DNA from: an uncultured Desulfosarcina sp.
GTDB taxonomy: Bacteria > Desulfobacterota > Desulfobacteria > Desulfobacterales > Desulfosarcinaceae
Length of the DNA: 64,000 bases
NCBI GenBank assembly: GCA_963674945.2
Contig: CAXXWQ010000003.1
Location: forward strand, 2,304,001 to 2,368,000
Reading direction: 5' to 3'
In this document: piece after piece, positions 42,370-64,000 of the stretch
How the letters are laid out: every line of letters begins with the position of its first letter
How positions within the stretch are numbered: the stretch's first letter is position 1
Made by a program: the position numbers and the translations under genes
The notes under the pieces: model-generated
Databases searched by the model: none
The model's input: the letters and a program-made list of their open reading frames with translations, nothing else
What the model was told of the DNA's origin: nothing

Positions 42370-42422
42370 AAAATGTGTATGGGAGACGATTGTGAACCGG
42401 CCGGTAGAAAGTAAGAGAAGAA

Positions 42423-43982
42423 TCAATAGCGAAGGATCGCCAGCGTCTGTTTGTCGATATTTTTTGGCAAAAGCGCCAGATGGTCCTCCCGCGTCCTGGC
42501 CAGCGGAAGTTTGGCGAACAGGTATCGAAGATAGGCATAGGGTTCCAGCCCATTGGCTTTGGCCGTTTCGATCAAACCGAAGAAGGTGGCGCTGGCTTCC
42601 GCACCCCGGGGCGCGCCGGAAAACAGCCAGTTCTTGCGACCCAACACGAATGGCCGGATGACATTTTCAGCCACATTGTTGTCGGGCTTCAGAAATCCGG
42701 CATTGATATAGACAACCAGTTTGTCCCATTGGTTTAGGCAATATTGGATCGCTTTGCCGAGAAGGCTTTTCGGAGGAGCTTGCCAATGGTAGGTGTCCAG
42801 CCAGGTTTTAAATTGTTTCAGAATCGGCTTGGCCTTTTCCTGTCGCAGGTCACGGATCTGTTCATACGACAAATCCTTGTCTCGCGCATACCGTTCTATG
42901 CCATACAATGCGCCAATGTAATCCAGCGCCTCGTCGGCAAGCCCCTTGGCTGCTTTTTGTTTGCCGCGCGCCTTGCGCCCTTTGTTCACCTCGACAAATT
43001 TACGTCGGGCATGGGTCAGGCAACCTAAATGGATGATCCCTTGCTTTTGGGACAGCTGATCATAGCCGCTGTAGCCGTCGCTTTGAACATAGCCCGAATA
43101 GTCTTCTATCATATCTTGCACTACCTTCCCACTACGGGTGGGATGATACTGGTAAAGCACCACAGGGGCATCCAACGGGCCGCCACAAAACACCCACATA
43201 TACGATTTTGTTGTATTGCTGCGGCCCGGTTCCTGAAGCACCTGAAACGGACTTTCATCGATATTGATCACAGGACCGCTTCGAATCTCCTGATGCATCA
43301 ATTCGACGATCGGCTGGCAGCAACCGGCGGCCTGAATCATCCAATTGGCCATGGTTGACCGTGAGATGTCAACGCCCAGACGGTCAAATATCTTTTGTTG
43401 GCGATGCAGGGGAAGCGCATCGGCGAATTTTGAGACAGCGATGTGGGCCAGCAGTCCCTCAGTGGCGTTGCTCTTGGGAATCAGTTGTTCTGGCGGCGGA
43501 GCGATCCTAACGGTGGGGCCGTCATCCTCGACGCCTTCGCAGGCCTTGCAGGCGTATTTGGGGCGGATGTGACGGATCACCTGGATTTTTGCCGGGATAT
43601 AATCGAGCTTCTCACAGGTCTCTTCGCCGATACGGCTCAGTTCAACTCCGCAAGCACACCGTTTCTCGGCCTCAGGGATATCGTGCAGGACCTCGACGCG
43701 GGGCAGATCCTCAGGCAACGGTTTGCGGCCACGCTTTTTGCGGGTGTGCTCCGGGACGGTGATGTCGTCATCGGCAAGGACGGGCTCTGCGGTTTCGTCG
43801 GGTTTGAACAACTGGAGTTGGTTGGGATTGACGGCCGGCAAAACTTCACTTTTGCGACCGAACAGCTCGTTCTTCAGCAGACGTACCATTTCTTGCAGAT
43901 GGTCGATTTGCTGCTGCTGAGAAGAGATAATCTCCTTAAGCGATTGGGCGTCATCGGGCAGGTTGTTCGATTCCGAAAGCAT
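42423..43982 (-). CDS. tnpC: IS66 transposase TnpC
   Basis: Coiled coil + Zn finger (CACG, CKAC), IDES, QSDGYSGY, CLTHARRKF, DNNVAENVIRP...GRKNWLF. Confidence 0.93.
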   Translation of the reverse strand: MLSESNNLPDDAQSLKEIISSQQQQIDHLQEMVRLLKNELFGRKSEVLPAVNPNQLQLFKPDETAEPVLADDDITVPEHTRKKRGRKPLPEDLPRVEVLHDIPEAEKRCACGVELSRIGEETCEKLDYIPAKIQVIRHIRPKYACKACEGVEDDGPTVRIAPPPEQLIPKSNATEGLLAHIAVSKFADALPLHRQQKIFDRLGVDISRSTMANWMIQAAGCCQPIVELMHQEIRSGPVINIDESPFQVLQEPGRSNTTKSYMWVFCGGPLDAPVVLYQYHPTRSGKVVQDMIEDYSGYVQSDGYSGYDQLSQKQGIIHLGCLTHARRKFVEVNKGRKARGKQKAAKGLADEALDYIGALYGIERYARDKDLSYEQIRDLRQEKAKPILKQFKTWLDTYHWQAPPKSLLGKAIQYCLNQWDKLVVYINAGFLKPDNNVAENVIRPFVLGRKNWLFSGAPRGAEASATFFGLIETAKANGLEPYAYLRYLFAKLPLARTREDHLALLPKNIDKQTLAILRY

Positions 43983-44045
43983 GCCTGATACATAGCATAA
44001 CCAATTGAATTTGTACACACTTATTTTACTTCCAGGTGGATGTTC

Positions 44046-44393
44046 TCAGCTTGCATAACGGTAGTTTAAACGCACATGAGCATTCGTATAATCCAGTCCG
44101 GCGAGAAGCCATTCCAGTTCTTTCGCACTAAGGGAAACGACTTCTTTTGTGGTTGTTGGCCAGTGGAAACGGTGCTTCTCCAGCCGTTTGAGCCAGAGAG
44201 CAAATCCATTTTTATCCCAGTATAAAATTTTTATCATGTTCCGACGCCGATTGCAGAAGACGAACAGGTCCCCTTCGAAGGGATTCAAATCCATGGCCTG
44301 TTCCACCAAAACCGAAAGCCCGTTGATCGATTTGCGCATATCGGTATTACCCACGGCCAGAAAGACCCTTTTGGGATTGGTGGGCAACATCAT
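44046..44393 (-). CDS. tnpB: IS66 accessory protein TnpB
   Basis: DMRKSINGL, LFVFCNRRR, KILYWD.NGF.LW.KRLE. Confidence 0.93.
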   Translation of the reverse strand: MMLPTNPKRVFLAVGNTDMRKSINGLSVLVEQAMDLNPFEGDLFVFCNRRRNMIKILYWDKNGFALWLKRLEKHRFHWPTTTKEVVSLSAKELEWLLAGLDYTNAHVRLNYRYAS

Positions 44394-44719
44394 AATGTAG
44401 CCACCATTGCAACAAGCTTGTTGATTTCTATCGATCCGTTTTGATCATCGACTTCGATGGTAAATCCGTTGGGGGTATGAATACGAACGGATGGATGTTT
44501 CCTCGTCGCTGATCCGTTGAGCGCAACCGGCAAAAAAGTAACTCGGGTTTTATCAACGGGCATGATGCGCCGTTTCCAATCGTAAAACCGATGGAGAATG
44601 AGATCGTTTTTTTTACAATAGGCCCTTTGGCTTAGGCTGCTGATCTTCCATTTCTCGATATGATTTTCCCAAAATTTTCGCCTTTGCTTGGAATCGAATG
44701 AATCATAGTCTTCAGGCAT
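44390..44719 (-). CDS. tnpA: IS66 accessory protein TnpA
   Basis: W..HI..W..SSLSQRAYC...FYDWKRR HTH pattern; overlaps tnpB. Confidence 0.85.
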   Translation of the reverse strand: MPEDYDSFDSKQRRKFWENHIEKWKISSLSQRAYCKKNDLILHRFYDWKRRIMPVDKTRVTFLPVALNGSATRKHPSVRIHTPNGFTIEVDDQNGSIEINKLVAMVATL

Positions 44720-47491: not shown

Positions 47492-48539
47492 CTGGGGTAT
47501 GCACTTGACTCCAGTGGCCACAACATATAGTGTACCAGTCTATGGAGGAAGATTACCCCAGAACGTTGATAGAATTTGAAAAACGATTTAGCTCTGAAGC
47601 TGGATGCACTGACTATTTGATGGCTCTTAGATGGCCCGAAGGCTTCCGTTGCCCTCATTGCGGTTCTGCATCCTCGTGGAGAACTAAACGATCCCAGTTT
47701 CATTGTACTGATTGTGGAAATCAATCTACGATAACTTCCGGTACAATTTTTCACGGCACCAGAAAGCCCTTGTCTCTTTGGTTTCGGGCTATGTGGCACA
47801 TTACAGGTCAGAAGTACGGAGCTAATGCACTTGGGCTTCAGAGAGTACTTAACCTTGGGAGTTATAATACCGCCTGGCAATGGCTCCATAAACTTCGAAG
47901 AGCAATGGTTCGTCCAGGACGTGACCGATTGTCCGGGATTGTTGAAGTTGATGAAACCTATGTCGGTGGGAAAAAGTCTGGAAAACGCGGTCGGGGTGCT
48001 GAAGGTAAAGCTTTGGTCGGTATTGCCGTGGAGGATAAAGGCCGAAAAGGAATTGGGCGAATTAGACTCTGGCACCTCGAAGACGCATCGGGAGATAGTC
48101 TGACTCAATTTGTACAAGAAATCGCCCAGCCAGGCAGCACCATCAGGACGGATGATTGGCCCGGCTATAGCAGCCTTGGCGATAAAGGATTTAAGCATAT
48201 TGCGATTCCATCGCATGACTTGAAGATTGTACATTTGGTAGCGTCGCTCATGAAACGATGGTTACTTGGTACTTATCAAGGGGCGGTCAGACCGTCTCAT
48301 TTGATGTACTATTTGGATGAATTCACATTCAGGTTCAACCGTAGAACATCAGTGTCTCGCGGAAAACTATTTTACAGGCTGGTCCAACAGGCCGTGATGG
48401 TGGACCCTGCCCCAGCTAGTACTCTTAAAGGTGCATCGTTACCGTTTTTGGAAGGGGCAGCAAATTTAAATCTCGATCCAATTGACGATGACCTGGGCCA
48501 CAACATATAGTATGTGCTGGATTTAAGTGCATACCCCAG
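47492..48539 (+). mobile_element. IS1595-family insertion sequence
   Basis: IR CTGGGGTATGCACTTGACTCCAG / CTGGATTTAAGTGCATACCCCAG; 8-bp duplication TAATAAAA at 47484-47491 and 48540-48547. Confidence 0.94.
47542..48510 (+). CDS. IS1595-family transposase
   Basis: Zn ribbon CPHC/CTDC, VEVDETYVGG, IRTDDWPGY, YLDEFTFRFNRR. Confidence 0.92.
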   Translation: MEEDYPRTLIEFEKRFSSEAGCTDYLMALRWPEGFRCPHCGSASSWRTKRSQFHCTDCGNQSTITSGTIFHGTRKPLSLWFRAMWHITGQKYGANALGLQRVLNLGSYNTAWQWLHKLRRAMVRPGRDRLSGIVEVDETYVGGKKSGKRGRGAEGKALVGIAVEDKGRKGIGRIRLWHLEDASGDSLTQFVQEIAQPGSTIRTDDWPGYSSLGDKGFKHIAIPSHDLKIVHLVASLMKRWLLGTYQGAVRPSHLMYYLDEFTFRFNRRTSVSRGKLFYRLVQQAVMVDPAPASTLKGASLPFLEGAANLNLDPIDDDLGHNI

Positions 48540-49259: not shown

Positions 49260-51908
49260 ATGAATGCTCAGGAATTGATTGACGAGCTGAAAGCCCAAGG
49301 CATAACCCTTCAATGGGATGGCGCCAGCATAAATTGGGAGGCCCCTTTTGACTTCGTACCTCCGGAAGAAATCGTCGAGTTGGTCAAGAAAAACTGGGAT
49401 GAAATAATAAAGCGTATAAATGGCCCACCACCGGAATGGTTGCTTAGTGGAACGAATATCGTAAGATTAACCCAAGGTGATTGTCTCGGGGTAATGGGAA
49501 TGTATCCAGACAACCTTGTGGATCTAATCGTAACCGATCCGCCATATGGGTACCAGTTCATGGGAAAGGATTGGGATAAGGCGGTTCCCTCGGTTGAAAT
49601 ATGGAAGGAATGTTTGCGAGTGCTCAAACCGGGAGGGTTTGCCTTTATCATGTCTGCCCCTCGTCAAGACGTCTTGGCTCGGATGATCATAAATCTTGAG
49701 GATGCTGGATTCAGAACAGGGTTTACCTCGCTATACTGGACTTATGCGAGTGGATTTCCAAAAGCCCATAACATCAGTAGATCAATAGATAACCGTGATG
49801 GTTATAAAGGGAAAATAGTTGGCTATAAAAAAGGAGTCGGTGGCGAAAATATAAACGATATTGTCAGAGGAAAAAAAGTCAGGAATACTACAGAATCAGG
49901 AGCTAAGGGCGTCGGAGCCTATGGATGCGGTGCTAAACAGGTGAGCGTAAACGTTCCTATCAGGGAACCCTCAGAAAAAGCAAAACAATTCAATGGATCC
50001 TATGGTGGATACCAACCTAAACCAGCTGTCGAAGTCATCATAATCGCTCAGAAACCATTGTCAGAAAAAACATTTGTTGACCAAGCGCTTTCGAACAAAA
50101 AAGGAATTACTTGGTTGGACGATTGTAGAATTCCATACGGTAATGAATCTGTCTGGTCGGCAGAAGGAGGGGTTCAATGGTCTCCGGAGAAAAAGTGGAA
50201 TAAAATAGAAAAAAGAAGTGGCAATGAATCAGGCCGATTCCCTGCCAACCTATTGATTAGCGATAATGTACTTGACGATGGATTAGACCATACCAGCCAC
50301 CCCATGGATTGTGTCGCAAAAAATGATGGTGGCGTGTGCTATGGAAAATATTCACCTCACAGGGCATTCAATCCAGGTGACACTGGAGGCTATTCTCGTT
50401 TCTTCTCATTGGATGCTTGGATACAAAAAAATCAGCAAGAGGGTTTGAACTTCAATAACCTTGAGGAGATTGTACAGCACAACCTCCCTTTTATGATTAT
50501 TCCAAAGGCCTCAAAAAATGAAAAAAATTTTGGATGTGATGAATTAGATGAGAAACCAAGTGCTTCCTCAGAATTCAGACCGAACCATACGAAAAAGGCA
50601 AAGAAAGGTGAGAATGGCAATCCGTATGGTCGCTGGAAAAAGCTAATAAATAATCACCCTACGGTAAAGCCCATCCTGCTGATGTCCTACCTCATCACCA
50701 TGGGAAGCCGTGAGGGTGACATAGTCCTCGACCCTTTTTGTGGTTCTGGGACAACCTGTTTGGCCGCGCGTCTCTTGAAACGGCCGTGCATAGGCATTGA
50801 AAAAGACCCTGGATATGCAAAAATCGCTGCCGCAAGAATACGGGAGTTGACTCTGCTGTCTTATATCAAGCAGGGACAACAGAAAAGAACCAATACAAAA
50901 TCTAAGGGAAGGGATCACAATCCTGTAAAAAGGACGAGTGCTGGTAAGACAGTCATCTTCCACGACAAATCTGGTATCGCCCTTACAAAACAGACTAAAA
51001 TCGACAGCCATAATTTCCCGTTCACTTTGAATACAGGCATCGGCTGTCATTTTGGTTGCCGGTATTGCTATCTCCAAGGGTATCCGTTCAATCGGCACGC
51101 CAAATTCCCCGTTGAGGCCAAAGTCAAGCTCTGGATTGCCGACAAATTGGACAAGGAACTCGGAAAATACAAGCACCTTCCTCAACATCTGAAACGAGTA
51201 CAGGTAAACGTTGCCGCAGAAGGATACCTGCCGTTAGTGATGTCAAAAGTGAAAAAAGAAAAAAACCGAGACATCATGGCCGAGGTGCTTCAAGTTTTCA
51301 GAAAGCACTGGGAAAAAGGCAACCATTGGATGGTGCACCTGATTACTAAAAGCCACATGGTCCTCAAACATCTCGACATCATCAGCGCCATGAAAGATCA
51401 GGTCCAGCTTGAATTAACCATCACCACTCTTGATGAAAATCGCAGACGAAAGATGGAGGGATTGGCACCATCGGTCGCGAAACGCTTGCAAGTGATAAGA
51501 AGATTTTCCTCCGCCGGCGTTTTCGTTCGCGCCATGTGCATGCCGCTGATCGGTGACCGAAAAGATGCCGAGACTATCAAGGCTGCCTGTTTTGAAAATG
51601 GCGCACGGGCCTTCAAACACAAGGGCGTCAACTATTGGGATGAAAAAGCCTTGCTGAATGGTGAAACTACGAAAGCTACCGGTCGGCATGACGATGTTTT
51701 CGAAGACCTTTTGGTAAAAAGCTGCGAACCATACCGGGTCGATAGTGAAATCCAGAAAATGACAGTCAAGATGCCGGTTATCGTGAATTCTGGGAAGACG
51801 AAACGTTGGAAGGGTTACAAAGAAGAGAACCTTGAAGATCGTGAAATGACTATGGAGGTATCTGGATATTCGGAGATCAATGACATTGATTGGGGATATG
51901 TAAAATAA
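49260..51908 (+). CDS. Fusion of TubC_N-like domain, beta-class N4C/N6A DNA methyltransferase and SplB/Rv2578c-like radical SAM domain
   Basis: TDPPY precedes HPTVKP and DPFCGSGTT (beta order); C-terminal GCHFGCRYCY (CxxxCxxC), ITKS, TITTLD...APSVAKRL. Confidence 0.85.
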   Translation: MNAQELIDELKAQGITLQWDGASINWEAPFDFVPPEEIVELVKKNWDEIIKRINGPPPEWLLSGTNIVRLTQGDCLGVMGMYPDNLVDLIVTDPPYGYQFMGKDWDKAVPSVEIWKECLRVLKPGGFAFIMSAPRQDVLARMIINLEDAGFRTGFTSLYWTYASGFPKAHNISRSIDNRDGYKGKIVGYKKGVGGENINDIVRGKKVRNTTESGAKGVGAYGCGAKQVSVNVPIREPSEKAKQFNGSYGGYQPKPAVEVIIIAQKPLSEKTFVDQALSNKKGITWLDDCRIPYGNESVWSAEGGVQWSPEKKWNKIEKRSGNESGRFPANLLISDNVLDDGLDHTSHPMDCVAKNDGGVCYGKYSPHRAFNPGDTGGYSRFFSLDAWIQKNQQEGLNFNNLEEIVQHNLPFMIIPKASKNEKNFGCDELDEKPSASSEFRPNHTKKAKKGENGNPYGRWKKLINNHPTVKPILLMSYLITMGSREGDIVLDPFCGSGTTCLAARLLKRPCIGIEKDPGYAKIAAARIRELTLLSYIKQGQQKRTNTKSKGRDHNPVKRTSAGKTVIFHDKSGIALTKQTKIDSHNFPFTLNTGIGCHFGCRYCYLQGYPFNRHAKFPVEAKVKLWIADKLDKELGKYKHLPQHLKRVQVNVAAEGYLPLVMSKVKKEKNRDIMAEVLQVFRKHWEKGNHWMVHLITKSHMVLKHLDIISAMKDQVQLELTITTLDENRRRKMEGLAPSVAKRLQVIRRFSSAGVFVRAMCMPLIGDRKDAETIKAACFENGARAFKHKGVNYWDEKALLNGETTKATGRHDDVFEDLLVKSCEPYRVDSEIQKMTVKMPVIVNSGKTKRWKGYKEENLEDREMTMEVSGYSEINDIDWGYVK

Positions 51909-52735: not shown

Positions 52736-53333
52736 ATGCCCATCTATGAAAAAAGCACTAATCAACTGCTGACGGAATATATCACCGAAAATTGCAAACC
52801 AGGAGAGACTATCAACAAGGAAGAAATTGTTGACTGGTTTTCACGAAACTATCCTAGAATCAAATCAAACACAGTCGGATGCCATATCATTAAATTTACC
52901 ACCAACCATCGGACAAGGATTCACTACGGTGCAAATCCCAGGTGTGACATGCTGTTTCAGCTCCCAGATAAAAGATTGCGCTTGTACATTCCACCAGATA
53001 GAACCAGGGCTACAACTCTATCGTGATGAAGAGGACAATACGATTACTGGTGTCGAATTCGATGCCGGTGGCAGACGTATTGATATTCTTGCTGCTGATA
53101 AAGAAAACAATCCAGTTATTATCGAATTGAAGGTTTCAAGAGGTTACGAGCGGACGGTGGGCCAATTGCTCCGATACAAGGCTTGGGTCAGGGAAAATAT
53201 AGCGGAAGGCCACAAGGTTCGAGGCGTAATCATAGCGAAATCTATCAGCCCCGACCTGAAAATGGCGGTGAGTGAAATCCAGGATATCGATATTTTTGAA
53301 TACGAACTAAAACTCGAACTCAAAAAGATTTAG
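52736..53333 (+). pseudogene. NucS/EndoMS-like PD-(D/E)xK nuclease with N-terminal HTH-like domain, frameshifted
   Basis: N-terminal part in one frame; IEPGLQLY...RRIDILAAD...IIELKVSRG...VGQLLRY in another frame; junction near 52990. Confidence 0.72.
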
Positions 53334-54194: not shown

Positions 54195-56798
54195 TTACTC
54201 GTCCCCCCCAGCTTCACTTGCAATGGCACCTATAAGGCCGCTTTTGCCTTTGGAGTACATAAAGTCCACAATTCCCTGAATGAGCCCGTCAATCTGGGCC
54301 AAAATGTTAGGCTGATCCCGTACGATAGCCCTGGCTTTTTTCAGGCAATTCTCCACTTCCTTAAACAGGCTTACATCTCTGGGGTTTTCCGGGTCCATGA
54401 ACTCAGGCTCCTTGATCCTAAACCTGAGCAGTGCAAGAAAGAGTAAAGCCCCTTGAAAAAAGATTTGCGCGATCGTCCTATTATTCACTTGCTTACGTAT
54501 GGCTTCAGCCGCCCGCTTGGCGAAATGCACTGCCATATCACTTTCCAGTGCATCATAGGCATCTTCTCGATAAGCCAATACCCGTGCCAAAGCTTTTGAG
54601 GATTGTAGAGTAAACGGGTTATTTACGCCACTTATGGATCTCCGGTAAATAGCATCAAATAAAGCTGCAAAATGTTGCTTGCTATTGAAGCATCTGCTTG
54701 CCGCTTCAGCAAAATAGCGCCAAGTATTACCATAATTATTTCCCTCATAGGTCAAAAAATAATGCATTAAATAATCTGATATTGCTTCGGGGGTTTTACC
54801 CCAAAGCCATGTTGCCCTCACAACGTATTTTATCGCTTCAGAAGGTGGATTTCGGCTATGAAGAAACTCGTTTGCTCTGGATTCTATTTTGGAGGCAATC
54901 GCCGTCACTAATGTGTCACCATATTCAGATCCGGAGATTCCATTCTCATCTATTCTCTTTCTCGTTTCAAATATGTTTGTTTCCTGATCAAAAAAAGAAG
55001 AACATAATACCCTCTTCATTTCGTCCAATTTTTCTATAAAATAGCTTCGTGAAACATCCTCCGAAAGTGCAATGAACCCTTTGAACCTGGTATCCGTAAA
55101 GGCATCCTTGCTCGTGGCAACCTCGTAGTGCAAAGTCTCTGGCCATCGTAGCTCTGGTTCTGGCAGGTCCTTTTCCTCCACCTTGATCATATTAGAATAA
55201 TCGAAAACCCTTGCTCTGCCTTGGAATGTTTCCTCCTTTTCGGGAACGATGACAACGCGGGCCAGTCCACTGGCAGGGCGCATCTCCACTTCAATTGTCA
55301 ATTTGACGTCTCTGGCTGGAATGGAAGGGAATTTCACCTCGCCGTAGCGGTACGGCGACTCGGTCCCTGTTTCCTGAGCGTCCTTGCGCATATAGACATG
55401 CAAGGCATCGGTATGTTTTTTCAGGAAAAAACGGTTCGGAATGCTGCGGGTGTAGGTTTTACCTCCGGCGCACTCCTTGGCTTCCACAATATCCATCCAC
55501 TCCAACCCACCCCCAACTTTTTCCGCATACAATGCCAGCCTTGGCAAGGTGTCCAAGTATGTGGGAAGCCCCGCAGCCAGGCGCCGGCCGAAGAGCCTTG
55601 CACCCGTTGCGACAGGGTCCTCTTCTGCACTTGCCAGCCAAATTGTATCTGGGCAAGCGTCTGGCCGGCATGGAAGGTTTATGAGTGCTTCTTGAATCCA
55701 TGCCTGAGTAGTTACAGGGCAAAGCGGCCCGCAGATCACCGCCCCGCGCAGGCGGCCATTGCGCTGCAACAAGGCTCGGCTCAGCGAGGCAGTTAAGTGC
55801 TGTCCCCAGGTTTCCTCCTTAATTTCGCGCTTGCGAGGGAGAATAGAACTGGATGTCTTGACCAAATCCAGCAGCAGGTCGCCGCCATCGGTGACGCAGC
55901 AGACAGACTCTGCAAACAGTTTCTTTGGAGGGTGCCAGTACCTCCACCCGTCAGCAGTGGACCAGGCTCGCGGAAGCTCGTGTTTTTTCCATGGTCTGCC
56001 AGCAATGGCGGCCCATAGTTCGGGAAAGTTGGTGAAAGTTTGCCAAAACGCCCCATGATCTATCGAGCATATTGGGTCCGCCTTGGCGGATAGGGCGCAA
56101 GCCCACTGCCAGCCAGCAGGACCGGGCGAGTGCCGGGGACGATTGCGTACGGGTAATATGAAGCGGTTGCCGCCGAAGACCTCTTCACGCAGTTCGAATG
56201 TCATGAAATCCATTCCGTCTGGCCCGATGTATACCACCAGCATCCAATCGCCAGTTTCCAAATCCTCGGGCATGGCCTTGTCCAGCCACTCCATGGCAGC
56301 GGCCACGGTGCGCCAGACCATTGAGATCCTGTGCCTGACGCCGCCAAATGCCCGGAGCAGCGTTTCCTGATGGTATTCGTCTAAATGGTCGGGAATGGCT
56401 ACTACCGCCCGGTTATCATTCTTAGCGTCAAAACCGCTGCCATGCAACAGGTCCTTCAGGTGGGCTGCCATGATGGAAGCGAGCGGAATCGAGACACCGC
56501 CTCCCACGTTCCAGCGGACCGGAACTGTAGTGTCTCCCGCGTCCACCAGCAGTGACCAGGCCACGGGAATAGGCACTCGCCGTAGCGGTTCGCCGGGCTT
56601 AACCCTCGCCTCGGGGGGCCAGTATAAACCGGAATGCACGCGCTCCTGCTCGGCCTCATCGCCGGTTCGGATCTGGCCAAGAGCGCGCTTGGGCAACACT
56701 GCGTCCGCCACGTAAAAACCGCTTGTCTTGAGCACGCCATCCAGATCAGCAACACAGTCGTTCAAGCCGAAAGCAGATACACCATACACGCTGGTCAT
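54195..56798 (-). CDS. Divergent Hsp70/actin-fold protein with novel C-terminal helical domain
   Basis: VVAIPDHL..HQETLLRA, RTVAAAMEWL, VVYIGPDGMD and DPVATGA occur in the order of DnaK motifs; ATG 56798 overlaps the upstream TGA. Confidence 0.6.
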   Translation of the reverse strand: MTSVYGVSAFGLNDCVADLDGVLKTSGFYVADAVLPKRALGQIRTGDEAEQERVHSGLYWPPEARVKPGEPLRRVPIPVAWSLLVDAGDTTVPVRWNVGGGVSIPLASIMAAHLKDLLHGSGFDAKNDNRAVVAIPDHLDEYHQETLLRAFGGVRHRISMVWRTVAAAMEWLDKAMPEDLETGDWMLVVYIGPDGMDFMTFELREEVFGGNRFILPVRNRPRHSPGPAGWQWACALSAKADPICSIDHGAFWQTFTNFPELWAAIAGRPWKKHELPRAWSTADGWRYWHPPKKLFAESVCCVTDGGDLLLDLVKTSSSILPRKREIKEETWGQHLTASLSRALLQRNGRLRGAVICGPLCPVTTQAWIQEALINLPCRPDACPDTIWLASAEEDPVATGARLFGRRLAAGLPTYLDTLPRLALYAEKVGGGLEWMDIVEAKECAGGKTYTRSIPNRFFLKKHTDALHVYMRKDAQETGTESPYRYGEVKFPSIPARDVKLTIEVEMRPASGLARVVIVPEKEETFQGRARVFDYSNMIKVEEKDLPEPELRWPETLHYEVATSKDAFTDTRFKGFIALSEDVSRSYFIEKLDEMKRVLCSSFFDQETNIFETRKRIDENGISGSEYGDTLVTAIASKIESRANEFLHSRNPPSEAIKYVVRATWLWGKTPEAISDYLMHYFLTYEGNNYGNTWRYFAEAASRCFNSKQHFAALFDAIYRRSISGVNNPFTLQSSKALARVLAYREDAYDALESDMAVHFAKRAAEAIRKQVNNRTIAQIFFQGALLFLALLRFRIKEPEFMDPENPRDVSLFKEVENCLKKARAIVRDQPNILAQIDGLIQGIVDFMYSKGKSGLIGAIASEAGGDE

Positions 56799-58540
56799 AC
56801 CAGTTCTCCCAGTACTTCTTCGATGACAAGGGCAATCCACTCCACAGACTCAGCCCATAGCTGCTGTTTGGTTGGGATCTCAACAAGATGTACACGTCCC
56901 TCCCTTGAAGGGATCAAATCAGGCTTCAATACCTCCATGTCACTGGCAACCACGAAAGCACGCAGATCAGGGAATCCCTGTGCCCGATCGCTTAGAAACA
57001 TACTGTGTCTGTTGAGTGCGACCGCTGCAGAATCTGCAATAGTCTGCCATGAAGGACGAATAGAAGGGGTACAGGCAGCGGTATGTACTGCCCACACGAC
57101 AACAACTGTTTGCTTTGAACCGTCCAGTGGGCTGAACACTAAGTAGAGGTGGCCGCCCATTCGCCCAAAATGCCTCGTCACCTTGTGCTCTTTGGCCAGG
57201 TCGGGATGAACGACTTCCAGGGCTACGGCCCTGCCTGCCATCCCATTCGGAGGACGGACGAGGAAAGGCCCCGGTTCAGAGCCACGCTCGATGCGCGTTC
57301 CCAGCCGCTGCTCGGGTAGAATTTCGAATACTGAAGCCAGTGTTTCCTCGAATCGATACCCTACCTGTCCAGATGTCTCGCCCCGCAAGGCCATGAGTGC
57401 GGCGTTCACCAGCATGCGGCTAATGTCGGCCCAAGTACGGGCCTGCCAGTCCCACAAGCGGTCCTCCTCGTCCTCCTGACGCAGCAGCTTGAGGTAAAAA
57501 TCCCATATTCGCTTGTAGCGGACGTCGTTCTGCAGCACATAATTTGGTTTCGGAACGGAGGGAGGTCTGGTGATGTTTGCCAACTGTGGTAATTGCCTGA
57601 GCTCAGCGCAGATGTTGCCGAAGGAATTAACTTTGTTGCCACGCTCTGAATACATGCGCTGCTCCGGGGTGCAGTCAAAGTTTAGATAACGGCGAGACTC
57701 CAGGCGGCAGCGGACCAGGAAGTCCTTGAGCACCTTGTTTTCCAGAGTATCCAACGACTCTCGGCGCGAAACGCCCATAAGTTGATGCCGGTTAGTAGCT
57801 GCCTTTTCTGTAGATGTGGTGCCAGGCTGTCGCATGTACCATTGCAGGCAAGTGGCGTCGGTCTCGGCAACGCGCGGTGCTGGCATCATCTTTCGTTCGC
57901 GTACCAGGATACGCCTTGCGGCATGCACAACGCCGGGCAACTGCTGGCGCATAGCGTCCGCGATATGCACGATGAGCGCCATACGCGGCTCATTTTCACT
58001 CTGGGCGAGCTTTTTTATGTAATCTACAATGTTTGACCATGGCAGCTTGCCTTCGCGATGGGTTTCCTTGGACTCCAGAATACACTCGTCAAAAAAATTG
58101 GACCAAGCCAGGATGGTGCGGTAAAGTGGGCTTTCGTCCCATTTGCCATTAATATTTTCTGCGCTCGGTACTGCGTATGAGGTGGAAAGATATACCTCAC
58201 GAGCGCCCTCTTTACTATGGATGGCCAGGGCCGTCTTTATGGAGCTATCATCGTTTCTGTTTGGTGTTTTAAGTTTTTGCGACACGGCCTTCTTGGCAAC
58301 GACGCCATGTGGCGTCTGGTAGAGCCGATATGCGCCGTCTGCCGCCTTAAACCTTGGCCCAAAGGGCTGAAAACGTTCGTAACGCCTGGTCAGTAGTACA
58401 GTGGTGTTTTCGGATACCGAGAGTACCGGGCTGCCGTAAAATGGCACGGTGACCGGCCCGTAGATGAGGTTAACGGTTTCGTCCCCGTTGCCTACGGACC
58501 ATGGCCACAGATGCAGTTGGACGTCCACGGCACCGTTCAT
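56795..58540 (-). CDS. McrC-like DUF2357 protein
   Basis: SLDTLENKVLK, PNYVLQNDVRYKRIW; directly downstream of an McrB-like GTPase. Confidence 0.75.
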   Translation of the reverse strand: MNGAVDVQLHLWPWSVGNGDETVNLIYGPVTVPFYGSPVLSVSENTTVLLTRRYERFQPFGPRFKAADGAYRLYQTPHGVVAKKAVSQKLKTPNRNDDSSIKTALAIHSKEGAREVYLSTSYAVPSAENINGKWDESPLYRTILAWSNFFDECILESKETHREGKLPWSNIVDYIKKLAQSENEPRMALIVHIADAMRQQLPGVVHAARRILVRERKMMPAPRVAETDATCLQWYMRQPGTTSTEKAATNRHQLMGVSRRESLDTLENKVLKDFLVRCRLESRRYLNFDCTPEQRMYSERGNKVNSFGNICAELRQLPQLANITRPPSVPKPNYVLQNDVRYKRIWDFYLKLLRQEDEEDRLWDWQARTWADISRMLVNAALMALRGETSGQVGYRFEETLASVFEILPEQRLGTRIERGSEPGPFLVRPPNGMAGRAVALEVVHPDLAKEHKVTRHFGRMGGHLYLVFSPLDGSKQTVVVVWAVHTAACTPSIRPSWQTIADSAAVALNRHSMFLSDRAQGFPDLRAFVVASDMEVLKPDLIPSREGRVHLVEIPTKQQLWAESVEWIALVIEEVLGELV

Positions 58541-58543
58541 GGT

Positions 58544-60958
58544 CTATTCATTCTCCAAAGACCTGGTGACACCTCGCCAGGTGAACATGCCTATGTTCTT
58601 GCTTTCATCGATGGCCGATGCTATGGCTGAGGATAGTTCTGCATCTCCAAGCGAGTCGATGACGCTGGCAACCTCCTGGAGGCAGCCCAGAGTCTTTGGC
58701 TCGGCCACGTCCAGCCCACGCAACTTGGGAATGATCTTCTGCTCTACCTGGTCTGCAAAAGCCAGTTTGTACCGGTTGTCCTGGCCGGCATCTGGGTAGT
58801 TGGCCAGGTACAACGCAATGGCGTCTTGAGCACGGTAGCCGAAGGGGCGTCCAACTTTCTCTAATGCGTTGTTCAAACAACGGATCCACTCTCTCATCTT
58901 GGGTTGCCATTCATCACTGCCATCAACTGGTTTGCACCAACTGCTCCACTGGTCCCGCGTAAGAAAGGGGCGAGTCATTCTTTCCTGCCCACCGTTATCA
59001 TTATGCTGACGCCGATCGTCAGGCTTGCCAAATCGCAGCAAATTGGAACGGTCCAGCACCTTGTCGGAGAGTGTTTGGGTGGTTTCGTCCTCGTTCATAG
59101 TGCCCACGAACAAAACGTTCTCCGGCACCCAAATACGGAAGCTGCGATTGCTGCCCGGACCGGTATCCAGTTCGATCTCGGCCTTCTCGCGATGTGCCGG
59201 GTTTGAAGGGTTCTCTACGAGCCGACGCAGTTCCAATTTTGAGAGAAACTCGCTAAAGTAATATTCGGTACGAGCCAAGTTCATTTCGTCCAGTAACACC
59301 ATAATCATGCGTTCTCTTGGCCAGTCGTAATCCAGGCCGGGGAACTCGCTGGGATCGTAGTTGTAGGGGTCCATGCGTACCAGGGCGCGGGATAGTTCTG
59401 TTGCTTTATAACTTTTTTCCAGATAGTTATAGAAGCCAAAGAGGTCCTGTGGTGAGTCCCAACGCGGCTGCACTGGAATAACCAAGGAATGGAGACCCAT
59501 GTGTTCGGCATACTTCACTGGCAGCAGGGTCTTGCCCGTGCCAGATACACCTGCAAGCACGGTCAGTGGGTTGATGCTCTGGCATTTTAGCGAAGTGTGA
59601 AAGGCATCGATGACCCTGGAAGGAAAGTAGAGATTGCTCTCCCGCAACTCTTTTTTAAATTGCTCCAAGGCCAGGTATTCACCTTTAGTACCTGTGGTGG
59701 GGGCAAACTCGGTTTTCTTGAAACAAACCGCATTTCGCTTTAGCAGGTCCTCATAGGCTTTGTGCACTTCCTCTGTTTCTTTGCCGGACATTTGCCCTTG
59801 GAGCTTTTCGACACTTTGTTTTAACAATGTCTTGCGAGCCACAAATTCTTCAACTTGCTCCTGTTCCCGTTGTCTTTTATTTTTCAGGGACTTTAGCTCA
59901 TCAAGTAATTCTATCACCTCTTTCTTTGCGCTATTGTATTTTACGATTGTATCTTTCGTCTGTCTTAATTCGTTTGTTAATAATTCTTTCTGTGTAACAA
60001 GAACATTTACCAGAGCACCAAGCTCCGCCTTCTCCTTACGTATAATTGATAACTCAGCCTTGGATTTATCAGCTTCGTGGGATGTCTCTACAACCTCATT
60101 TTTTTTAGTTTTTAGCTCTTCGCTCGCCTTCTCTAAGGCCATCCGCAGCTTACCCACTTTTTCTACAAAATTATCATGTTCTTTTCTCAAATAATCCAGA
60201 CGAGATTCCAGTTCATTTTTATTCCCCATCAGTTTATTAACAATAGCTTCAGCCTCAGCTTGCTCCCTATTAATTTCAGCAAATTTCATTTTGCTTTGTT
60301 CTAATTCATGAGAGACCTTTTGAGCATCCAAACGTTTTAATTCGGTCTCCTTGGCTGTAATGTCTCCTAAAGCGCGAATCTCAGCCACTTGATTTTCAAG
60401 TGTTACCTGCTCTGCCTTAAAAACCACAAGCTTCGCCTCAACGTTCGCGAAACTTTCGATTGTTTTTTGAGAGTCGTCTATTTTCTTTTGTAGTTGCTTC
60501 AATTCTTCACTAAGTGAAGCAGCCTCACCACGTTTGGCCTCTAAATTGCCAACTTCTTGATTGAGTTTCTCAAGTGTTTGAGTTACAAAGTGGCGTTGAT
60601 TTTCCAGTTCTCCCACCTCTTTACGTAAAATCTCGTTTTTTTGATCCTGAATTGCACCTTTTTGAGCAAGGTCATCAAGAAGTGCTCGCAGCCGTTCTTG
60701 TTCTTCACGTTCGGCCTTTACTCGATTTAGTTCATCGCGCTGGATATCTAACCAATTTCTAAGTTCTTTCACATCAGCTTGAAGATTTTCCTTCTTTGCT
60801 GCAAGTTCTGCTGCACTTATGCCATCTTCAACCAAAGCTTTCATACGCCGTTGATAATAAAGATAATGTGTTAATGACAAAAGGACGAGAATTATCGCTA
60901 AAGCTGCAGCGAATATCCAGATTGTGGTAGGGAGAAACGGAATTGTTATACCGTCCAT
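58544..60958 (-). CDS. TM-coiled coil-McrB-like AAA+ GTPase (NxD variant)
   Basis: N-terminal TM helix, about 350-aa coiled coil, LAGVSGTGKT, PVQPRW...DLFGFYN, LLDEMNLAR.EYYFSEFLS, GTMNEDET...LSDKVLDR. Confidence 0.88.
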   Translation of the reverse strand: MDGITIPFLPTTIWIFAAALAIILVLLSLTHYLYYQRRMKALVEDGISAAELAAKKENLQADVKELRNWLDIQRDELNRVKAEREEQERLRALLDDLAQKGAIQDQKNEILRKEVGELENQRHFVTQTLEKLNQEVGNLEAKRGEAASLSEELKQLQKKIDDSQKTIESFANVEAKLVVFKAEQVTLENQVAEIRALGDITAKETELKRLDAQKVSHELEQSKMKFAEINREQAEAEAIVNKLMGNKNELESRLDYLRKEHDNFVEKVGKLRMALEKASEELKTKKNEVVETSHEADKSKAELSIIRKEKAELGALVNVLVTQKELLTNELRQTKDTIVKYNSAKKEVIELLDELKSLKNKRQREQEQVEEFVARKTLLKQSVEKLQGQMSGKETEEVHKAYEDLLKRNAVCFKKTEFAPTTGTKGEYLALEQFKKELRESNLYFPSRVIDAFHTSLKCQSINPLTVLAGVSGTGKTLLPVKYAEHMGLHSLVIPVQPRWDSPQDLFGFYNYLEKSYKATELSRALVRMDPYNYDPSEFPGLDYDWPRERMIMVLLDEMNLARTEYYFSEFLSKLELRRLVENPSNPAHREKAEIELDTGPGSNRSFRIWVPENVLFVGTMNEDETTQTLSDKVLDRSNLLRFGKPDDRRQHNDNGGQERMTRPFLTRDQWSSWCKPVDGSDEWQPKMREWIRCLNNALEKVGRPFGYRAQDAIALYLANYPDAGQDNRYKLAFADQVEQKIIPKLRGLDVAEPKTLGCLQEVASVIDSLGDAELSSAIASAIDESKNIGMFTWRGVTRSLENE

Positions 60959-60994
60959 GTTGACCTCTCAATTGCGTTAGTATATTTCATCGGA

Positions 60995-62470
60995 CTATTG
61001 AACTTCGGTTGGTTCAATAGATTCCTTTAATTGACTCTCCAAAGTCTTAATTTTGTCATCAACCTGCGAAAGTTGCTGCATCATACCATCTGAAAGATGC
61101 TTTATTTCTTGGAGTTTTTGTGAAATTAGACTTGATTCGGAACCAAAATTATTATGCACCTTGGAAATGATATCTATCAACTCCTTTGATTGATTGTTAA
61201 GGGTGGATTGTGTTGATTCAAGCCCGTTTGCTGTTCTTGCCATATGAAGGTTAAATTCATCAAACTTGGTCACATCCTTTTGAATGTCATCCAAATATCC
61301 TTTTAGTGTTTTTGCTCTGCTATCGAATTCCGTTATTTGCTCTGTGAAGCTGGTTAAATTGCCATTAAGTTGCTTAATGTGATCATCCAAGTTTGTATTT
61401 TGCGAACTGAGCGTTATTACCATTCGATTGATAGAATTAATTGGTACCTCAATGGTTTGAGCCAACTGCTTAGCCTGGGTATCTACATTTTCTGATGCGA
61501 CTTCAATGCCTCCTATAGTAGCTCTCAACTTTTCGACAGTCTTATCTACTGTTCCTGAAGCGGTATCGATTGTTTTTGAGCTGACTGAGATAGACTGAGA
61601 AGTTTTACTCAATGATTCACAAGAGGTTCCAACACGTTTAGTTTCACCAGATAGATTTTCCACTTGGTCATGGATGGTCGCAATAGCCTCCTTTAATTTT
61701 GCAGCTTGGCCATGCAATTCGTTGATACTTGCATCTGTTTTCTGATTCGTGGCTTCAATCTTATCAGCTATAAAATTGAACCGATTTCCAAGTTTAGCCA
61801 ATTCGGATCTATCTTCCGACATTTCCGAGAGTACTTGCTTAAGATAATCCTTCTGTTTTTCAAGACCTGCAAGATCTTCCGAAAGCTTTCGTTCTTGAAT
61901 TTGGTACGCTTTAATTTTATCTTTGTGATCCCTGCTTTGTACTTGTAATTGGGCAACCTCGTCCTTTAACTCTTCCGCATTATTGCTTGATACCTTAATA
62001 TCATTTTGCAATTGCGCGTAAGCCCTTCTTGCGACCTCTTTGTCCGAAATTACCTGATTTCGTTCTGCGATGGCCCTATCCAACATTTCTTGAGCCGATT
62101 TAACCTGGGTAGTTAGACTTTCAAACTTTGCTTGCCTTGCCTGTAACTCACCTTTTATTTTGTCCCCAAGGGCTTTGAGGTTATCGTTTTCATCCTTGAG
62201 TGATGGCAATTCCTTTAATATGGTGGCATGTGATTGAAGATTGATCTCCAATTGTTCACGATCTTTTTCTAATCGTACTCGTTCCACCGCCACGCTTTGA
62301 CGCTCTGCTTCGACATTGACAATTTTCCAACCAGAAAGAATCATGAGGATAATTATCAGTATCACAGCTGCGGATAGAAGCCAGACATGCGGAAAGGCCA
62401 TATCAAGCTGGCTTGATTTCTTTCCTTGGTGGTTTTTCGAACCACTCTTAATATTGTTTAAATCATTCAT
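60995..62470 (-). CDS. Membrane-anchored long coiled-coil protein
   Basis: One TM helix (WLLSAAVILIIILMILSGW) followed by about 440 aa of heptad-rich sequence. Confidence 0.8.
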   Translation of the reverse strand: MNDLNNIKSGSKNHQGKKSSQLDMAFPHVWLLSAAVILIIILMILSGWKIVNVEAERQSVAVERVRLEKDREQLEINLQSHATILKELPSLKDENDNLKALGDKIKGELQARQAKFESLTTQVKSAQEMLDRAIAERNQVISDKEVARRAYAQLQNDIKVSSNNAEELKDEVAQLQVQSRDHKDKIKAYQIQERKLSEDLAGLEKQKDYLKQVLSEMSEDRSELAKLGNRFNFIADKIEATNQKTDASINELHGQAAKLKEAIATIHDQVENLSGETKRVGTSCESLSKTSQSISVSSKTIDTASGTVDKTVEKLRATIGGIEVASENVDTQAKQLAQTIEVPINSINRMVITLSSQNTNLDDHIKQLNGNLTSFTEQITEFDSRAKTLKGYLDDIQKDVTKFDEFNLHMARTANGLESTQSTLNNQSKELIDIISKVHNNFGSESSLISQKLQEIKHLSDGMMQQLSQVDDKIKTLESQLKESIEPTEVQ

Positions 62471-64000
62471 TTTCGCTCCATGCTTTTTGTATTTTGCTTA
62501 CACAACCCTTCATATCCTCGCGTAACTGGTACGTCCAAAACCGGAGAACTTTCCATCCCATCGCCTGCAATTGAATATCTCGCCACGTGTCATCAGTTTT
62601 ACGTGATCCATCTGAATTGCGATGACAAGCACCATCTACCTCGATATCTATCTTTAAAGGTGGCTCCCCTTTTTTTATTAGGGCAATATCCAGCCGTCTA
62701 CTAGCAACCGGAAATTGTGGTCTGGGTTCAAGGCCTACAGCTATTAACGCATCAAAAAGCATTTTTTCAAATGGTGAGTCATGCGGATGCCATGGCCCCC
62801 TTGGGGAAAAGTAGTCAGCTTTTTGGGGGGCAGCTGTGAGTCGCTCTATGTGTCTTATTTTGGAATTTCGTGCCCATTTTCGGTTTCCTACAATATGAAG
62901 CACGGCCCTTGCGCGGCTGGCCGCCACATTAAAAAGATTTGCGTTCTCTCTTAAAAATCCCTTGGAACCGACAGGCATCTCTGATCCGGCACATAAACTA
63001 AAGATGATGACATCTCGTTCGTCTCCCTGAAATCCATGTGCTGTATCGATGTGAGTCTGAGAGGCTTCCAACCAATAATAGAGATTACTATCAGATTCAT
63101 ATAACGCATCGCGAATGCGATTTGCCTGCTTTCGAAATGGCGTAACAATCCCCAGAGATCCACGAAACTTATTTTTAACTAGCATTTCCCTTACAATGTT
63201 TAGGATGGTGTCAACTTCTTCCTGGCAAAAGCAACCGCTCCCTCCTCCACTTTTTACGTCACCTTCAACCTCTGTCCAATGGATGCCTGGAGGAACCCCA
63301 TGAGGGGCTTTTAGATGTGTCAAATCTGTGGCCACTCTTAGTCGGCCACTATAGAAAATATCGTTTGAATACCCAGCGATTTCGGTGGCGCTGCGGTAAG
63401 TTTCACTCAGAAACACTGGTTCGGCATCGTTCGTACCTGCCAACAAATCATAGAGAGAATGATCGGAATAGGAAAAACGGGTGTCTTCAATACGCGTAAT
63501 GCCAATTTCTCGCTGTAAGAGTGTATCCTTTGCTGTGGATAATTTCGAGCAGTGAGTTAACTGAAATGGGTCCCCTACCACACCAACACGTTTGGCCCGG
63601 AAAAGCAGTGGAATAGCAGATGGGATATCAGACTGACTGGCTTCATCTACAATGACCAGATCAAATAACCCAGGCATAAGAGGTAGGCGAGATCCTGCTG
63701 ACAGATTGGTTACCGCCCAACATGGAAAGCTGTGAAGAACATGAGGTGCCCGTTCTTTGAGTATCGAAATTGCTTCCGCTCGAATCTTTCCTTCATCAAG
63801 ACCTGTCCGCATAGCCCTTAGCGTGGTCTTTAGCCCATCCATCTTTTCTCTGCTAACACCCTCTGGTAATCCTTTCCTATCATTTAGGTCAAGAGAAATG
63901 GCTCTTTGAACAATTTCTTCAAGCCGTTGCGTTATTTCTGATATCGAAGTGGTCAGTACCTCCAATGGTGGATGAATACGAGCCTCGTCCTCCAATGGCC
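62463..64000 (-). CDS. SF1 (UPF1/DNA2-like) helicase with C-terminal Vsr/DUF559-like nuclease; 5' end outside window
   Basis: IVDEASQ, GDPFQL, ETYRS, VTPFRKQ, TAHGFQGDE, NVAASRAR; then SPFE, RLDIA, IEVDGACH, RD..LQAMGWKVLRFW. Confidence 0.9.
   Translation of the reverse strand, partial: PLEDEARIHPPLEVLTTSISEITQRLEEIVQRAISLDLNDRKGLPEGVSREKMDGLKTTLRAMRTGLDEGKIRAEAISILKERAPHVLHSFPCWAVTNLSAGSRLPLMPGLFDLVIVDEASQSDIPSAIPLLFRAKRVGVVGDPFQLTHCSKLSTAKDTLLQREIGITRIEDTRFSYSDHSLYDLLAGTNDAEPVFLSETYRSATEIAGYSNDIFYSGRLRVATDLTHLKAPHGVPPGIHWTEVEGDVKSGGGSGCFCQEEVDTILNIVREMLVKNKFRGSLGIVTPFRKQANRIRDALYESDSNLYYWLEASQTHIDTAHGFQGDERDVIIFSLCAGSEMPVGSKGFLRENANLFNVAASRARAVLHIVGNRKWARNSKIRHIERLTAAPQKADYFSPRGPWHPHDSPFEKMLFDALIAVGLEPRPQFPVASRRLDIALIKKGEPPLKIDIEVDGACHRNSDGSRKTDDTWRDIQLQAMGWKVLRFWTYQLREDMKGCVSKIQKAWSENE

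Follow-up and report, generated by a model that had tools for sequence, protein, structure and literature searches.

What kind of system is encoded by a five-gene operon that joins an McrB-type GTPase to predicted membrane helices, a helicase-nuclease and an Hsp70-like protein, and has it been described before? The question is raised by the last part of a 64,000-nucleotide stretch of DNA from an uncultured Desulfosarcina sp. (Desulfobacterota; GenBank assembly GCA_963674945.2, contig CAXXWQ010000003.1, positions 2,304,001 to 2,368,000 of the forward strand), which was analysed as a whole and is called the window below. A first-pass annotation had described the operon as a membrane-tethered defence system of the McrBC type within a tRNA-linked island, and had been unable to assign it to a described subtype. 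The latter statement does not stand, since the gene set and order equal those given for Type III-B CoCoNuT in the main text of the computational survey by Bell, Sahakyan, Makarova, Wolf and Koonin (eLife 2024, PMC11090510). By gene content, gene order and domain architecture the operon is an intact member of Type III-B and not a new subtype, and this match removes most of its novelty: an exact match to a characterised subtype, which the annotation had named as the outcome that would do so, is what was found, although III-B has been characterised by computation alone. We put at about 0.7 the probability that the operon is an intact III-B cassette which likely acts as an anti-phage or anti-plasmid machine tethered to the inner membrane. 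The operon itself is one more member of a recorded cassette; what appears to be both family-wide and unreported is that CnuA and CnuB carry conserved membrane anchors with contrasting charge patterns.

The operon consists of five intact, co-oriented and tightly packed open reading frames (ORFs) on the minus strand, in the transcription order cnuH-cnuA-cnuB-cnuC-cnuD. The window holds the 3' part of cnuH (62463..64000), whose ORF passes the window end and is completed by the following 14 kb of sequence (L002), where the full gene occupies L002:8463-12017, encodes 1184 aa and starts 2017 nt past the window end. It is followed, all on the minus strand, by cnuA (60995..62470; 491 aa, a transmembrane helix and coiled-coil-type sequence), cnuB (58544..60958; 804 aa, with a transmembrane helix, then a stretch of coiled-coil type of about 430 aa and an AAA+ GTPase of the McrB type), cnuC (56795..58540; 581 aa, homologous to McrC, its DUF2357 region conserved and its C-terminal region degenerate) and cnuD (54195..56798; 867 aa counted from the ATG, with an Hsp70-like nucleotide-binding domain and beta-type substrate-binding domain followed by an all-helical repeat region, approximately residues 584-863). 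A GTG start for cnuD at 56840, giving 881 aa, was rejected; the ATG at 56798 overlaps the cnuC stop, as in many relatives. The junctions are an 8-nt overlap between cnuH and cnuA, a 36-nt gap between cnuA and cnuB, a 3-nt gap between cnuB and cnuC and an ATGA overlap between cnuC and cnuD, exactly the packing first reported, and the motifs named at that time (GVSGTGKT, GTMNEDET and IEVDG) are all located in the translations. The five genes and their common orientation are thus real; the first-pass annotation was silent on their lying on the minus strand and on the first gene being cut at the window end. Because the genes overlap, we infer that all five are co-transcribed. Scanning for promoters gave no useful signal (21 sites found, 18.1 expected).

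The same arrangement recurs widely. A scan of species-representative genomes yielded an estimated total of about 820 matching stretches, of which at least 594 were matched and 537 of these confirmed; the gene-order counts below come from the best 80 of the 537 confirmed loci, whose ORFs were searched with the window's five proteins (phmmer). cnuC follows cnuB in all 78 testable loci and cnuD follows cnuC in 69 of 74. An adjacent cnuH is present in 49 of 54, lying upstream in 41 of these and downstream of cnuD in the other 8. The five genes therefore co-occur, and the conservation of their order among homologues, which had been put forward as a test, is borne out across the 80 loci in several phyla. 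By the submitters' titles these loci comprise about 24 of Desulfobacterota type, 27 of Planctomycetota (including the anammox genera Brocadia and Jettenia), 14 of Verrucomicrobiota or Lentisphaeria, 12 of Pseudomonadota and 3 others. The eight loci with cnuH behind cnuD (order A-B-C-D-H: L031, L032, L053, L060, L067, L069, L077 and L078) are of Verrucomicrobiota type by record title in seven cases, the eighth, L031, being labelled Limisphaerales and taken as Verrucomicrobiota. Three contigs of metagenome-assembled genomes (MAGs; L010, L034 and L007) have cnuB or cnuH broken into two or three ORFs, through frameshifts or assembly errors.

Two neighbours were considered as further components. 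A TetR gene lies 115 nt upstream of cnuH, with a weak hairpin and, after it, a T run between the two, and was rejected as a sixth component, a homologue being present in 0 of the 80 loci; a 235-aa ORF downstream of cnuD was likewise set aside, not being conserved in the relatives' loci. Since neither is conserved, the core of the system is taken to be the five genes.

The correspondence with Type III-B extends from the gene list to the domains. As described in the main text of PMC11090510, III-B comprises a UPF1-like CnuH that bears a large helical insertion, a Sul7s-like winged helix-turn-helix (wHTH) at its N terminus, an OB fold and a Vsr-like nuclease fused directly to it; a CnuA that is a separate protein made of a coiled coil alone; a coiled-coil GTPase, CnuB, with the NxD signature; a CnuC whose N terminus is IG-like and which also has DUF2357 and an inactivated PD-(D/E)xK domain; and a separate CnuD with an Hsp70-like nucleotide-binding domain, a substrate-binding domain and HEAT-like repeats, the cassette lacking the TerY-P module. 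The window's operon shares the CnuH with its fused nuclease, the stand-alone CnuA, the NxD-bearing CnuB, the DUF2357 protein CnuC with a most likely dead nuclease and the separate CnuD. Pfam families of the TerY-P triad (VWA, PP2C phosphatase, Ser/Thr kinase) are absent from the ORFs of the window, L002 and L085, the last being one of two further pieces (L085 and L086) that extend 54 kb past the window end. The order matches as well, as far as accession numbering can show it: the numbers of the III-B representatives TBW38397 (CnuHE), TBW38399 (CnuB) and TBW38400 (CnuC) listed in PMC11090510 leave one gene between H and B. The two points of difference are the N-terminal helices of CnuA and CnuB, found here and in nearly all relatives and on which the text of the paper is silent, and the taxonomic spread, which is much wider here than the "primarily Alphaproteobacteria" of that text.

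CnuH is a UPF1-like superfamily 1 (SF1) helicase in which Walker A is followed by a long helical insertion and which ends in a Vsr-like nuclease. The pairing of an SF1 helicase with such a nuclease, as first proposed, is supported by Pfam matches to AAA_11 (E 3.6e-19), AAA_12 (1.1e-26) and AAA_19 and, over residues 1083-1179, to MTES_1575 (2.7e-12) and DUF559 (1.9e-7); the nuclease domain (62466..62771, minus strand, residues 1083-1184) carries LDIAL...IEVDG..H and is fused directly to the helicase, cnuH adjoining cnuA without an intervening gene. In an AlphaFold2 model built from 43 sequences (mean pLDDT, the predicted local distance difference test score, 84.3), a unit of three helices and two strands (10-75) is followed by a disordered linker, a beta-rich part, the helicase and, last, the nuclease, and an all-helical insertion (517-763) separates Walker A (438-445) from the DEASQ motif (791-795). 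Foldseek places this model closest to SETX, UPF1, Sen1, Aquarius, IGHMBP2 and Dna2 (E 7.9e-22 to 1e-15). The catalytic positions are retained throughout the 43-sequence alignment A4: seven of the eight residues of Walker A GPPGTGKS (G438-G441, G443-S445) are invariant or at least 90% conserved, D791, E792 and Q795 are invariant, and so are D1110, E1126, D1128, G1129 and H1132 of the nuclease. This invariance, together with the degenerate nuclease region of CnuC described below, makes a role of the helicase-nuclease as the effector plausible. Vsr-family nucleases are known as DNA enzymes, and the helicases that CnuH resembles best in structure act on RNA; the target may be DNA or RNA, of which the paper favours RNA.

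CnuB was proposed to be a coiled-coil McrB derivative of the CoCoNuT kind with the NxD signature, and the motif GTMNEDET, the coiled coil and the UPF1-like and Hsp70-like partners bear this out. The protein matches Pfam AAA_5 weakly (1.1e-5) and the PADLOC candidate family PDC-M26A strongly (6.7e-41). Its Walker A GVSGTGKT (59528..59551, minus strand) has G470, S472, G473, T474, G475, K476 and T477 invariant in alignment A1, Walker B reads LLDEMN, and the signature (59081..59104, minus strand) takes the form GT[ML]NxD in all 120 homologues listed, with N622 and D624 invariant in A1; 521 homologues reached E<=1e-3 among 8000 candidates scored. The roughly 430 residues between the membrane helix and Walker A match SMC/Rad50 coiled-coil profiles at scores below their cut-offs. 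Classical McrBC, the Type IV system of E. coli K-12, likewise has an AAA+ GTPase with Walker A, Walker B and an Asn/Asp signature and a partner with an N-terminal DUF2357, but it has NxxD and an N-terminal reader of modified DNA where the operon has NxD, a membrane helix and a coiled coil; the replacement of the reader domain by an anchor and a coiled coil had been noticed at the outset, and the N terminus of CnuB is indeed a transmembrane helix followed by a coiled coil. The operon further departs from McrBC in the degenerate nuclease region of its McrC homologue, in three extra subunits and in its membrane anchor. Among MAGs labelled Phycisphaeraceae, eight loci (L038, L039, L041, L048, L050, L054, L074 and L076) carry CnuB homologues of 1177-2296 aa, three times the usual length through much longer N-terminal regions, and in several of these neither a CnuA-like ORF nor CnuH was found adjacent.

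That CnuC is an McrC-like DUF2357 protein agrees with a Pfam match to DUF2357 above the Pfam cut-off (E 1.6e-6). When 74 sequences are aligned, columns conserved to at least 80% abound in residues 190-370, and within residues 400-581 just E410, G414, W483 and position 528 reach 80%, with no conserved D...(D/E)xK motif; with four conserved columns and no such motif, the nuclease of CnuC is most likely dead. CnuD finds no match in Pfam, PADLOC or NCBIfam. The Hsp70 fold attributed to it is, in spite of these silent sequence libraries, clear in an AlphaFold2 model from 55 sequences (pLDDT 91.3; predicted template modelling score, pTM, 0.85): Foldseek returns 120 matches in the PDB at E<=1e-3, the best being 9a5j_A (6.2e-12), and all the matches listed are Hsp70-family chains (DnaK, BiP, Hsc70, Hsp110, Ssz1) or entries containing one. 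Residues 584-863 form stacked helical repeats in the same model. Across the 55 sequences of alignment A2 neither an acidic residue nor a lysine reaches 90% conservation, which fits a degenerate ATPase site. By its model and this alignment, CnuD has an Hsp70 fold without conserved catalytic residues.

CnuA is defined mainly by its position and its sequence pattern. No domain scores above threshold in Pfam, NCBIfam or PADLOC, the matches being sub-threshold ones of coiled-coil type; the consensus of alignment A3 has leucines every seven residues, and the first half of the rod is rich in E, K and R, like cytoplasmic SMC-type coiled coils. Because coiled coils swamp the pool of candidates in a homologue search (2 matches at E<=1e-10), the CnuA starts of relatives were taken from ORF calls beside the cnuH stop.

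That the operon encodes two transmembrane coiled-coil proteins, as first proposed, is confirmed by conservation of both anchors. Hydrophobic segments were scored by the Kyte-Doolittle mean over 19 residues (KD19). CnuA has a predicted helix at residues 26-48 (FPHVWLLSAAVILIIILMILSGW; 62327..62395, minus strand; KD19 2.76) and CnuB at residues 10-32 (PTTIWIFAAALAIILVLLSLTHY; 60863..60931, minus strand; KD19 2.53), and CnuH and CnuC have no strongly hydrophobic segment by this measure. A transmembrane-like segment is present in 116 of the 120 listed CnuB homologues, in 67 of the 69 CnuB proteins from relatives' loci with an intact 5' end, and in the ORF at the CnuA position, ending beside cnuB, in 58 of 64 relatives' loci; as controls, the same measure was positive in 2/74 CnuC, 0/43 CnuH and 2/55 CnuD. 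This recurrence, set against the low control rates, places the anchors beyond chance. The same two features are found on plasmids: on Rhizobium leguminosarum p2 and R. tropici pRtrCIAT899b the five genes stand in the window's order, the signature reads GTMNEDE and the N termini of CnuA and CnuB are hydrophobic, and the CnuB of the Rhizobium plasmid is 43% identical to that of the window over the GTPase part. By annotation, a Shedu nuclease gene and a restriction endonuclease gene lie next to the Rhizobium copy.

The flanking charges of the two helices differ. Among CnuB homologues the 15 residues before the helix contain on average 0.03 K+R and those after it 3.1, the C side being the higher in 115 of 116; by this clear case of the positive-inside rule, the N terminus of CnuB is predicted to lie outside and its C terminus inside, with the rod and the GTPase in the cytoplasm. 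CnuA has an N-terminal tail with a median of 23 aa and 3.5 K/R (at least two K/R in 32 of 38 tails), and in two relatives the charged tail reaches 70 and 89 residues, one of them with a CxxC...CxxC pattern. As such charged tails are poor candidates for export, an N-in/C-out arrangement with the rod in the periplasm can be argued, at about even odds.

These anchors appear to be missing from the published text on III-B. All six uses of "transmembrane" in the main text of PMC11090510 concern the FtsB-like fusion of CoCoPALM, EssC, a four-helix membrane protein, ShdA or a reference, none of them III-B, and membrane helices of III-B are mentioned neither in that main text nor in the legends of figures 3 and 6 nor in the nine III-B rows of supplement 1. 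A full-text search of later literature found nothing on membrane anchoring or experimental tests of III-B, and a 2025 preprint on YprA (PMC12458937), in the part seen by that search, extends the CoCoNuT classification and does not touch on anchoring.

Several observations weigh against the assignment, or against parts of the picture drawn from it. By title most of the 80 loci are Desulfobacterota, Planctomycetota or Verrucomicrobiota, whereas the text of PMC11090510 places III-B mainly in Alphaproteobacteria. The wHTH and OB fold expected of a III-B CnuH are putative readings of the model's secondary structure, residues 10-75 being modelled as helix-helix-helix-strand-strand (pLDDT 78-91) and residues 173-259 as beta-rich, and a sequence search with residues 1-80 gave nothing better than E 0.14. 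A direct link to the published representatives is slight: RLB93046.1, one of the III-B representatives, shares its accession prefix with the CnuC of L034 (RLB09919.1, from a Guaymas MAG), a weak hint as the accessions differ, and of ten proteins from relatives' loci looked up exactly, nine were found, none of them identical to the paper's III-B accessions. The helices are called from hydropathy alone. For CnuA the K+R counts on the two sides of the helix are nearly equal (2.7 before it and 2.8 after it), leaving its topology ambiguous. No tRNA or integrase was seen to mark an island around the operon. Finally, the role in defence is argued from family and genomic context; III-B is predicted in PMC11090510 to defend against viruses, and the literature search found no experimental test of the type.

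On the preferred reading, that of a III-B cassette tethered to the inner membrane, the CnuB rod of about 430 residues and the GTPase would hang in the cytoplasm from the membrane, and the complex would be held by that rod. Reportedly, McrB assembles into a ring and McrC stimulates its GTP hydrolysis, a finding that Bell et al. credit to Niu et al. (2020); by analogy, CnuB may form a ring whose GTP hydrolysis the DUF2357 part of CnuC would stimulate. Because it lacks a working nuclease, CnuC would act as an adaptor. The trigger, either RNA or a peptide, would be bound by CnuD with little turnover of ATP, and CnuH would serve as effector by unwinding and cutting nucleic acid. The chances are about even that CnuA has the opposite topology, the tail being cytoplasmic and the rod periplasmic, in which case the pair would span the membrane. 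The published model pictures a soluble complex that surveys RNA; the anchor would instead place the machine at the inner membrane, where the nucleic acids of phages and plasmids enter.

Where the two rods lie is what separates the ways in which such a cassette could work. An arrangement lying wholly in the cytoplasm, to which we give a substantial though minority share, would have the CnuA and CnuB rods pair there, the helices merely fixing the complex to the membrane, with CnuD binding aberrant or viral RNA, perhaps at ribosomes, and CnuH degrading RNA, leading to dormancy or death of the infected cell. The equal charges on both sides of the CnuA helix are compatible with a cytoplasmic rod, as is the resemblance of the first half of that rod to SMC-type coiled coils, and the best structural matches of CnuH are the RNA helicases SETX, UPF1 and Sen1; yet Vsr-family nucleases are known as enzymes of DNA. 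It would also require the CnuA tail (median 23 aa with 3.5 K/R, and 70 to 89 aa in two relatives) to cross the membrane, whereas CnuB, whose N terminus is predicted to lie outside, has almost no K/R there; and the rod lengths of CnuA and CnuB are not significantly correlated over 38 loci (Spearman 0.21, p 0.20, phylogenetic dependence uncorrected), which gives no support to lengthwise pairing. For their part, Bell et al., in the main text of PMC11090510, take the Hsp70-like CnuD and the UPF1-like helicase as grounds for RNA targeting, and also argue that the coiled coils interact. A bolder and, on balance, unlikely proposal is that III-B works as a trans-envelope alarm, in which a periplasmic CnuA with an N-in anchor and a cytoplasmic CnuB with an N-out anchor would pair through their helices within the membrane, and an upset of the envelope, as when a phage adsorbs or injects or when DNA enters by way of a pilus, would be passed inward to the CnuB-CnuC GTPase, licensing CnuH at the site of entry. 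If CnuA does face outward, the system would connect a nuclease in the cytoplasm with the periplasm, and were the alarm real it would be the first derivative of a restriction enzyme to sense from outside the cytoplasm. With a family of about 820 stretches estimated in species-representative genomes, one result on this point would inform many genomes.

Two further explanations would change what the cassette is rather than where it sits. It could be no immune system, serving instead the ends of mobile elements, which could use it, for example, to exclude incoming conjugative DNA at the membrane or to compete with it, or acting as a membrane-associated quality control of nucleic acids; relatives do occur on large Rhizobium plasmids, the window copy lies among insertion sequence (IS) elements and near RadC, Rad52 and Cas4-like genes typical of integrated elements, and no experimental defence test was found in the literature. 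We consider this improbable: the core derives from a Type IV restriction enzyme, other restriction-like genes adjoin the operon, the Rhizobium copy stands beside the annotated Shedu nuclease and restriction endonuclease, and plasmid exclusion itself counts as defence in the usual sense. That the operon forms a new membrane-tethered subtype outside the published classification, perhaps nearer the FtsB-like CoCoPALM, strikes us as very improbable. The main text of PMC11090510 does leave III-B without membrane helices while giving a fusion of transmembrane segment and coiled coil for CoCoPALM GTPases, and the phyla of our loci differ from those it names for III-B; against this, the Rhizobium plasmid copies, from within the very class named for III-B, share the five genes, the NxD motif and both anchors, and the accession prefix common to RLB93046.1 and RLB09919.1 points, as a weak hint only, the same way. 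CoCoPALM, as that text describes it, has the same NxD McrB GTPase fused to an FtsB-like transmembrane and coiled-coil part, but it is defined by linked signal-peptidase-like pilus assembly genes, has coiled coils on its McrC and lacks the CnuH/CnuD set, and no such pilus genes were found near the operon, where CnuH, CnuA and CnuD are present instead.

Comparison with the other CoCoNuT types places the operon apart from them as well. Types III-A and III-C share the NxD coiled-coil McrB, the UPF1-like CnuH and the Hsp70-like module. In the III-A-like locus of Klebsiella plasmid pKP57-mcr10, however, CnuC and CnuD are fused (1348 aa), CnuE is separate and the N terminus of CnuB is not hydrophobic, the highest KD19 anywhere in the protein being 0.78; a neighbour there, cut at the locus edge, is annotated as a lipopolysaccharide kinase. 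The III-C-like locus of Synechocystis plasmid pSYSX differs in a phospholipase D effector and another gene order, and its CnuB (L087:8767-10926) has a hydrophobic N-terminal segment (KD19 2.39). On these single III-C-like and III-A-like examples, the anchor may be shared by III-B and III-C. RmuC-like proteins consist of a transmembrane helix, a long coiled coil and a nuclease. A similar layout, in which a membrane helix at the N terminus precedes a long coiled coil and an enzymatic head, is found in ShdA of Shield, which the main text of PMC11090510 mentions; in ShdA and the RmuC-like proteins the head is an RmuC-like nuclease within a single protein, and the likeness drawn to CnuB is one of layout.

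The surroundings of the operon fit a defence island or a mobile-element setting. The tRNA linkage first claimed for this island did not hold, as ARAGORN finds no tRNA in the 64-kb window, L002, L085 or L086. To call it a variable island is nonetheless fair, since the neighbourhood is rich in IS elements and defence-like genes. Transposase genes lie at 13134-14663, 34666-36921, 40901-44719 and 47530-48510 and belong to DDE group 1 (two), Transposase_29, an IS66 set (TnpB and a small ORF) and IS1595; they interrupt the stretch between a polysaccharide-synthesis cluster (1.9-25 kb of the window) and the defence-like genes. Among the latter, on the plus strand, are an ORF of 882 aa combining an N6/N4 DNA methyltransferase with a radical SAM domain by Pfam (49260-51908; PADLOC MTase_II 7.6e-34) and, about 900 nt after it, an ORF of 168 aa resembling a NucS_C endonuclease (52827-53333; PADLOC candidate PDC-S02 1.3e-17), which possibly form a separate restriction-modification-like pair beside the CoCoNuT.

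Beyond cnuH and the TetR gene, L002:13789-18989 (window-equivalent 67789-72989) encodes RadC, an MBL-fold protein (PADLOC PDC-M48B, 4e-28), Rad52/22 and a Cas4-like PD-(D/E)xK nuclease, a set typical of integrated mobile elements. Farther on, a 695-aa sigma-54 activator (L085:1527-3614) matches PADLOC RtcR_PspF2 over its AAA and helix-turn-helix parts only (profile 146-446), its 360-aa N terminus being unmatched, and a DUF1848 protein lies near it (L085:6227-7132); some CoCoNuTs are linked to RtcR according to the main text of PMC11090510.

Relatives of the GTPase are also found in 170 plasmid records, 109 of them from Klebsiella. In the enterobacterial plasmid rows listed, the gene is annotated as "chromosome partitioning protein ParA" in 13 of 15 cases and as "hypothetical protein" in the other two. 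At the one locus inspected (L088) the ParA label looks like a misannotation, the gene encoding the McrB-like subunit of a III-A-like cassette.

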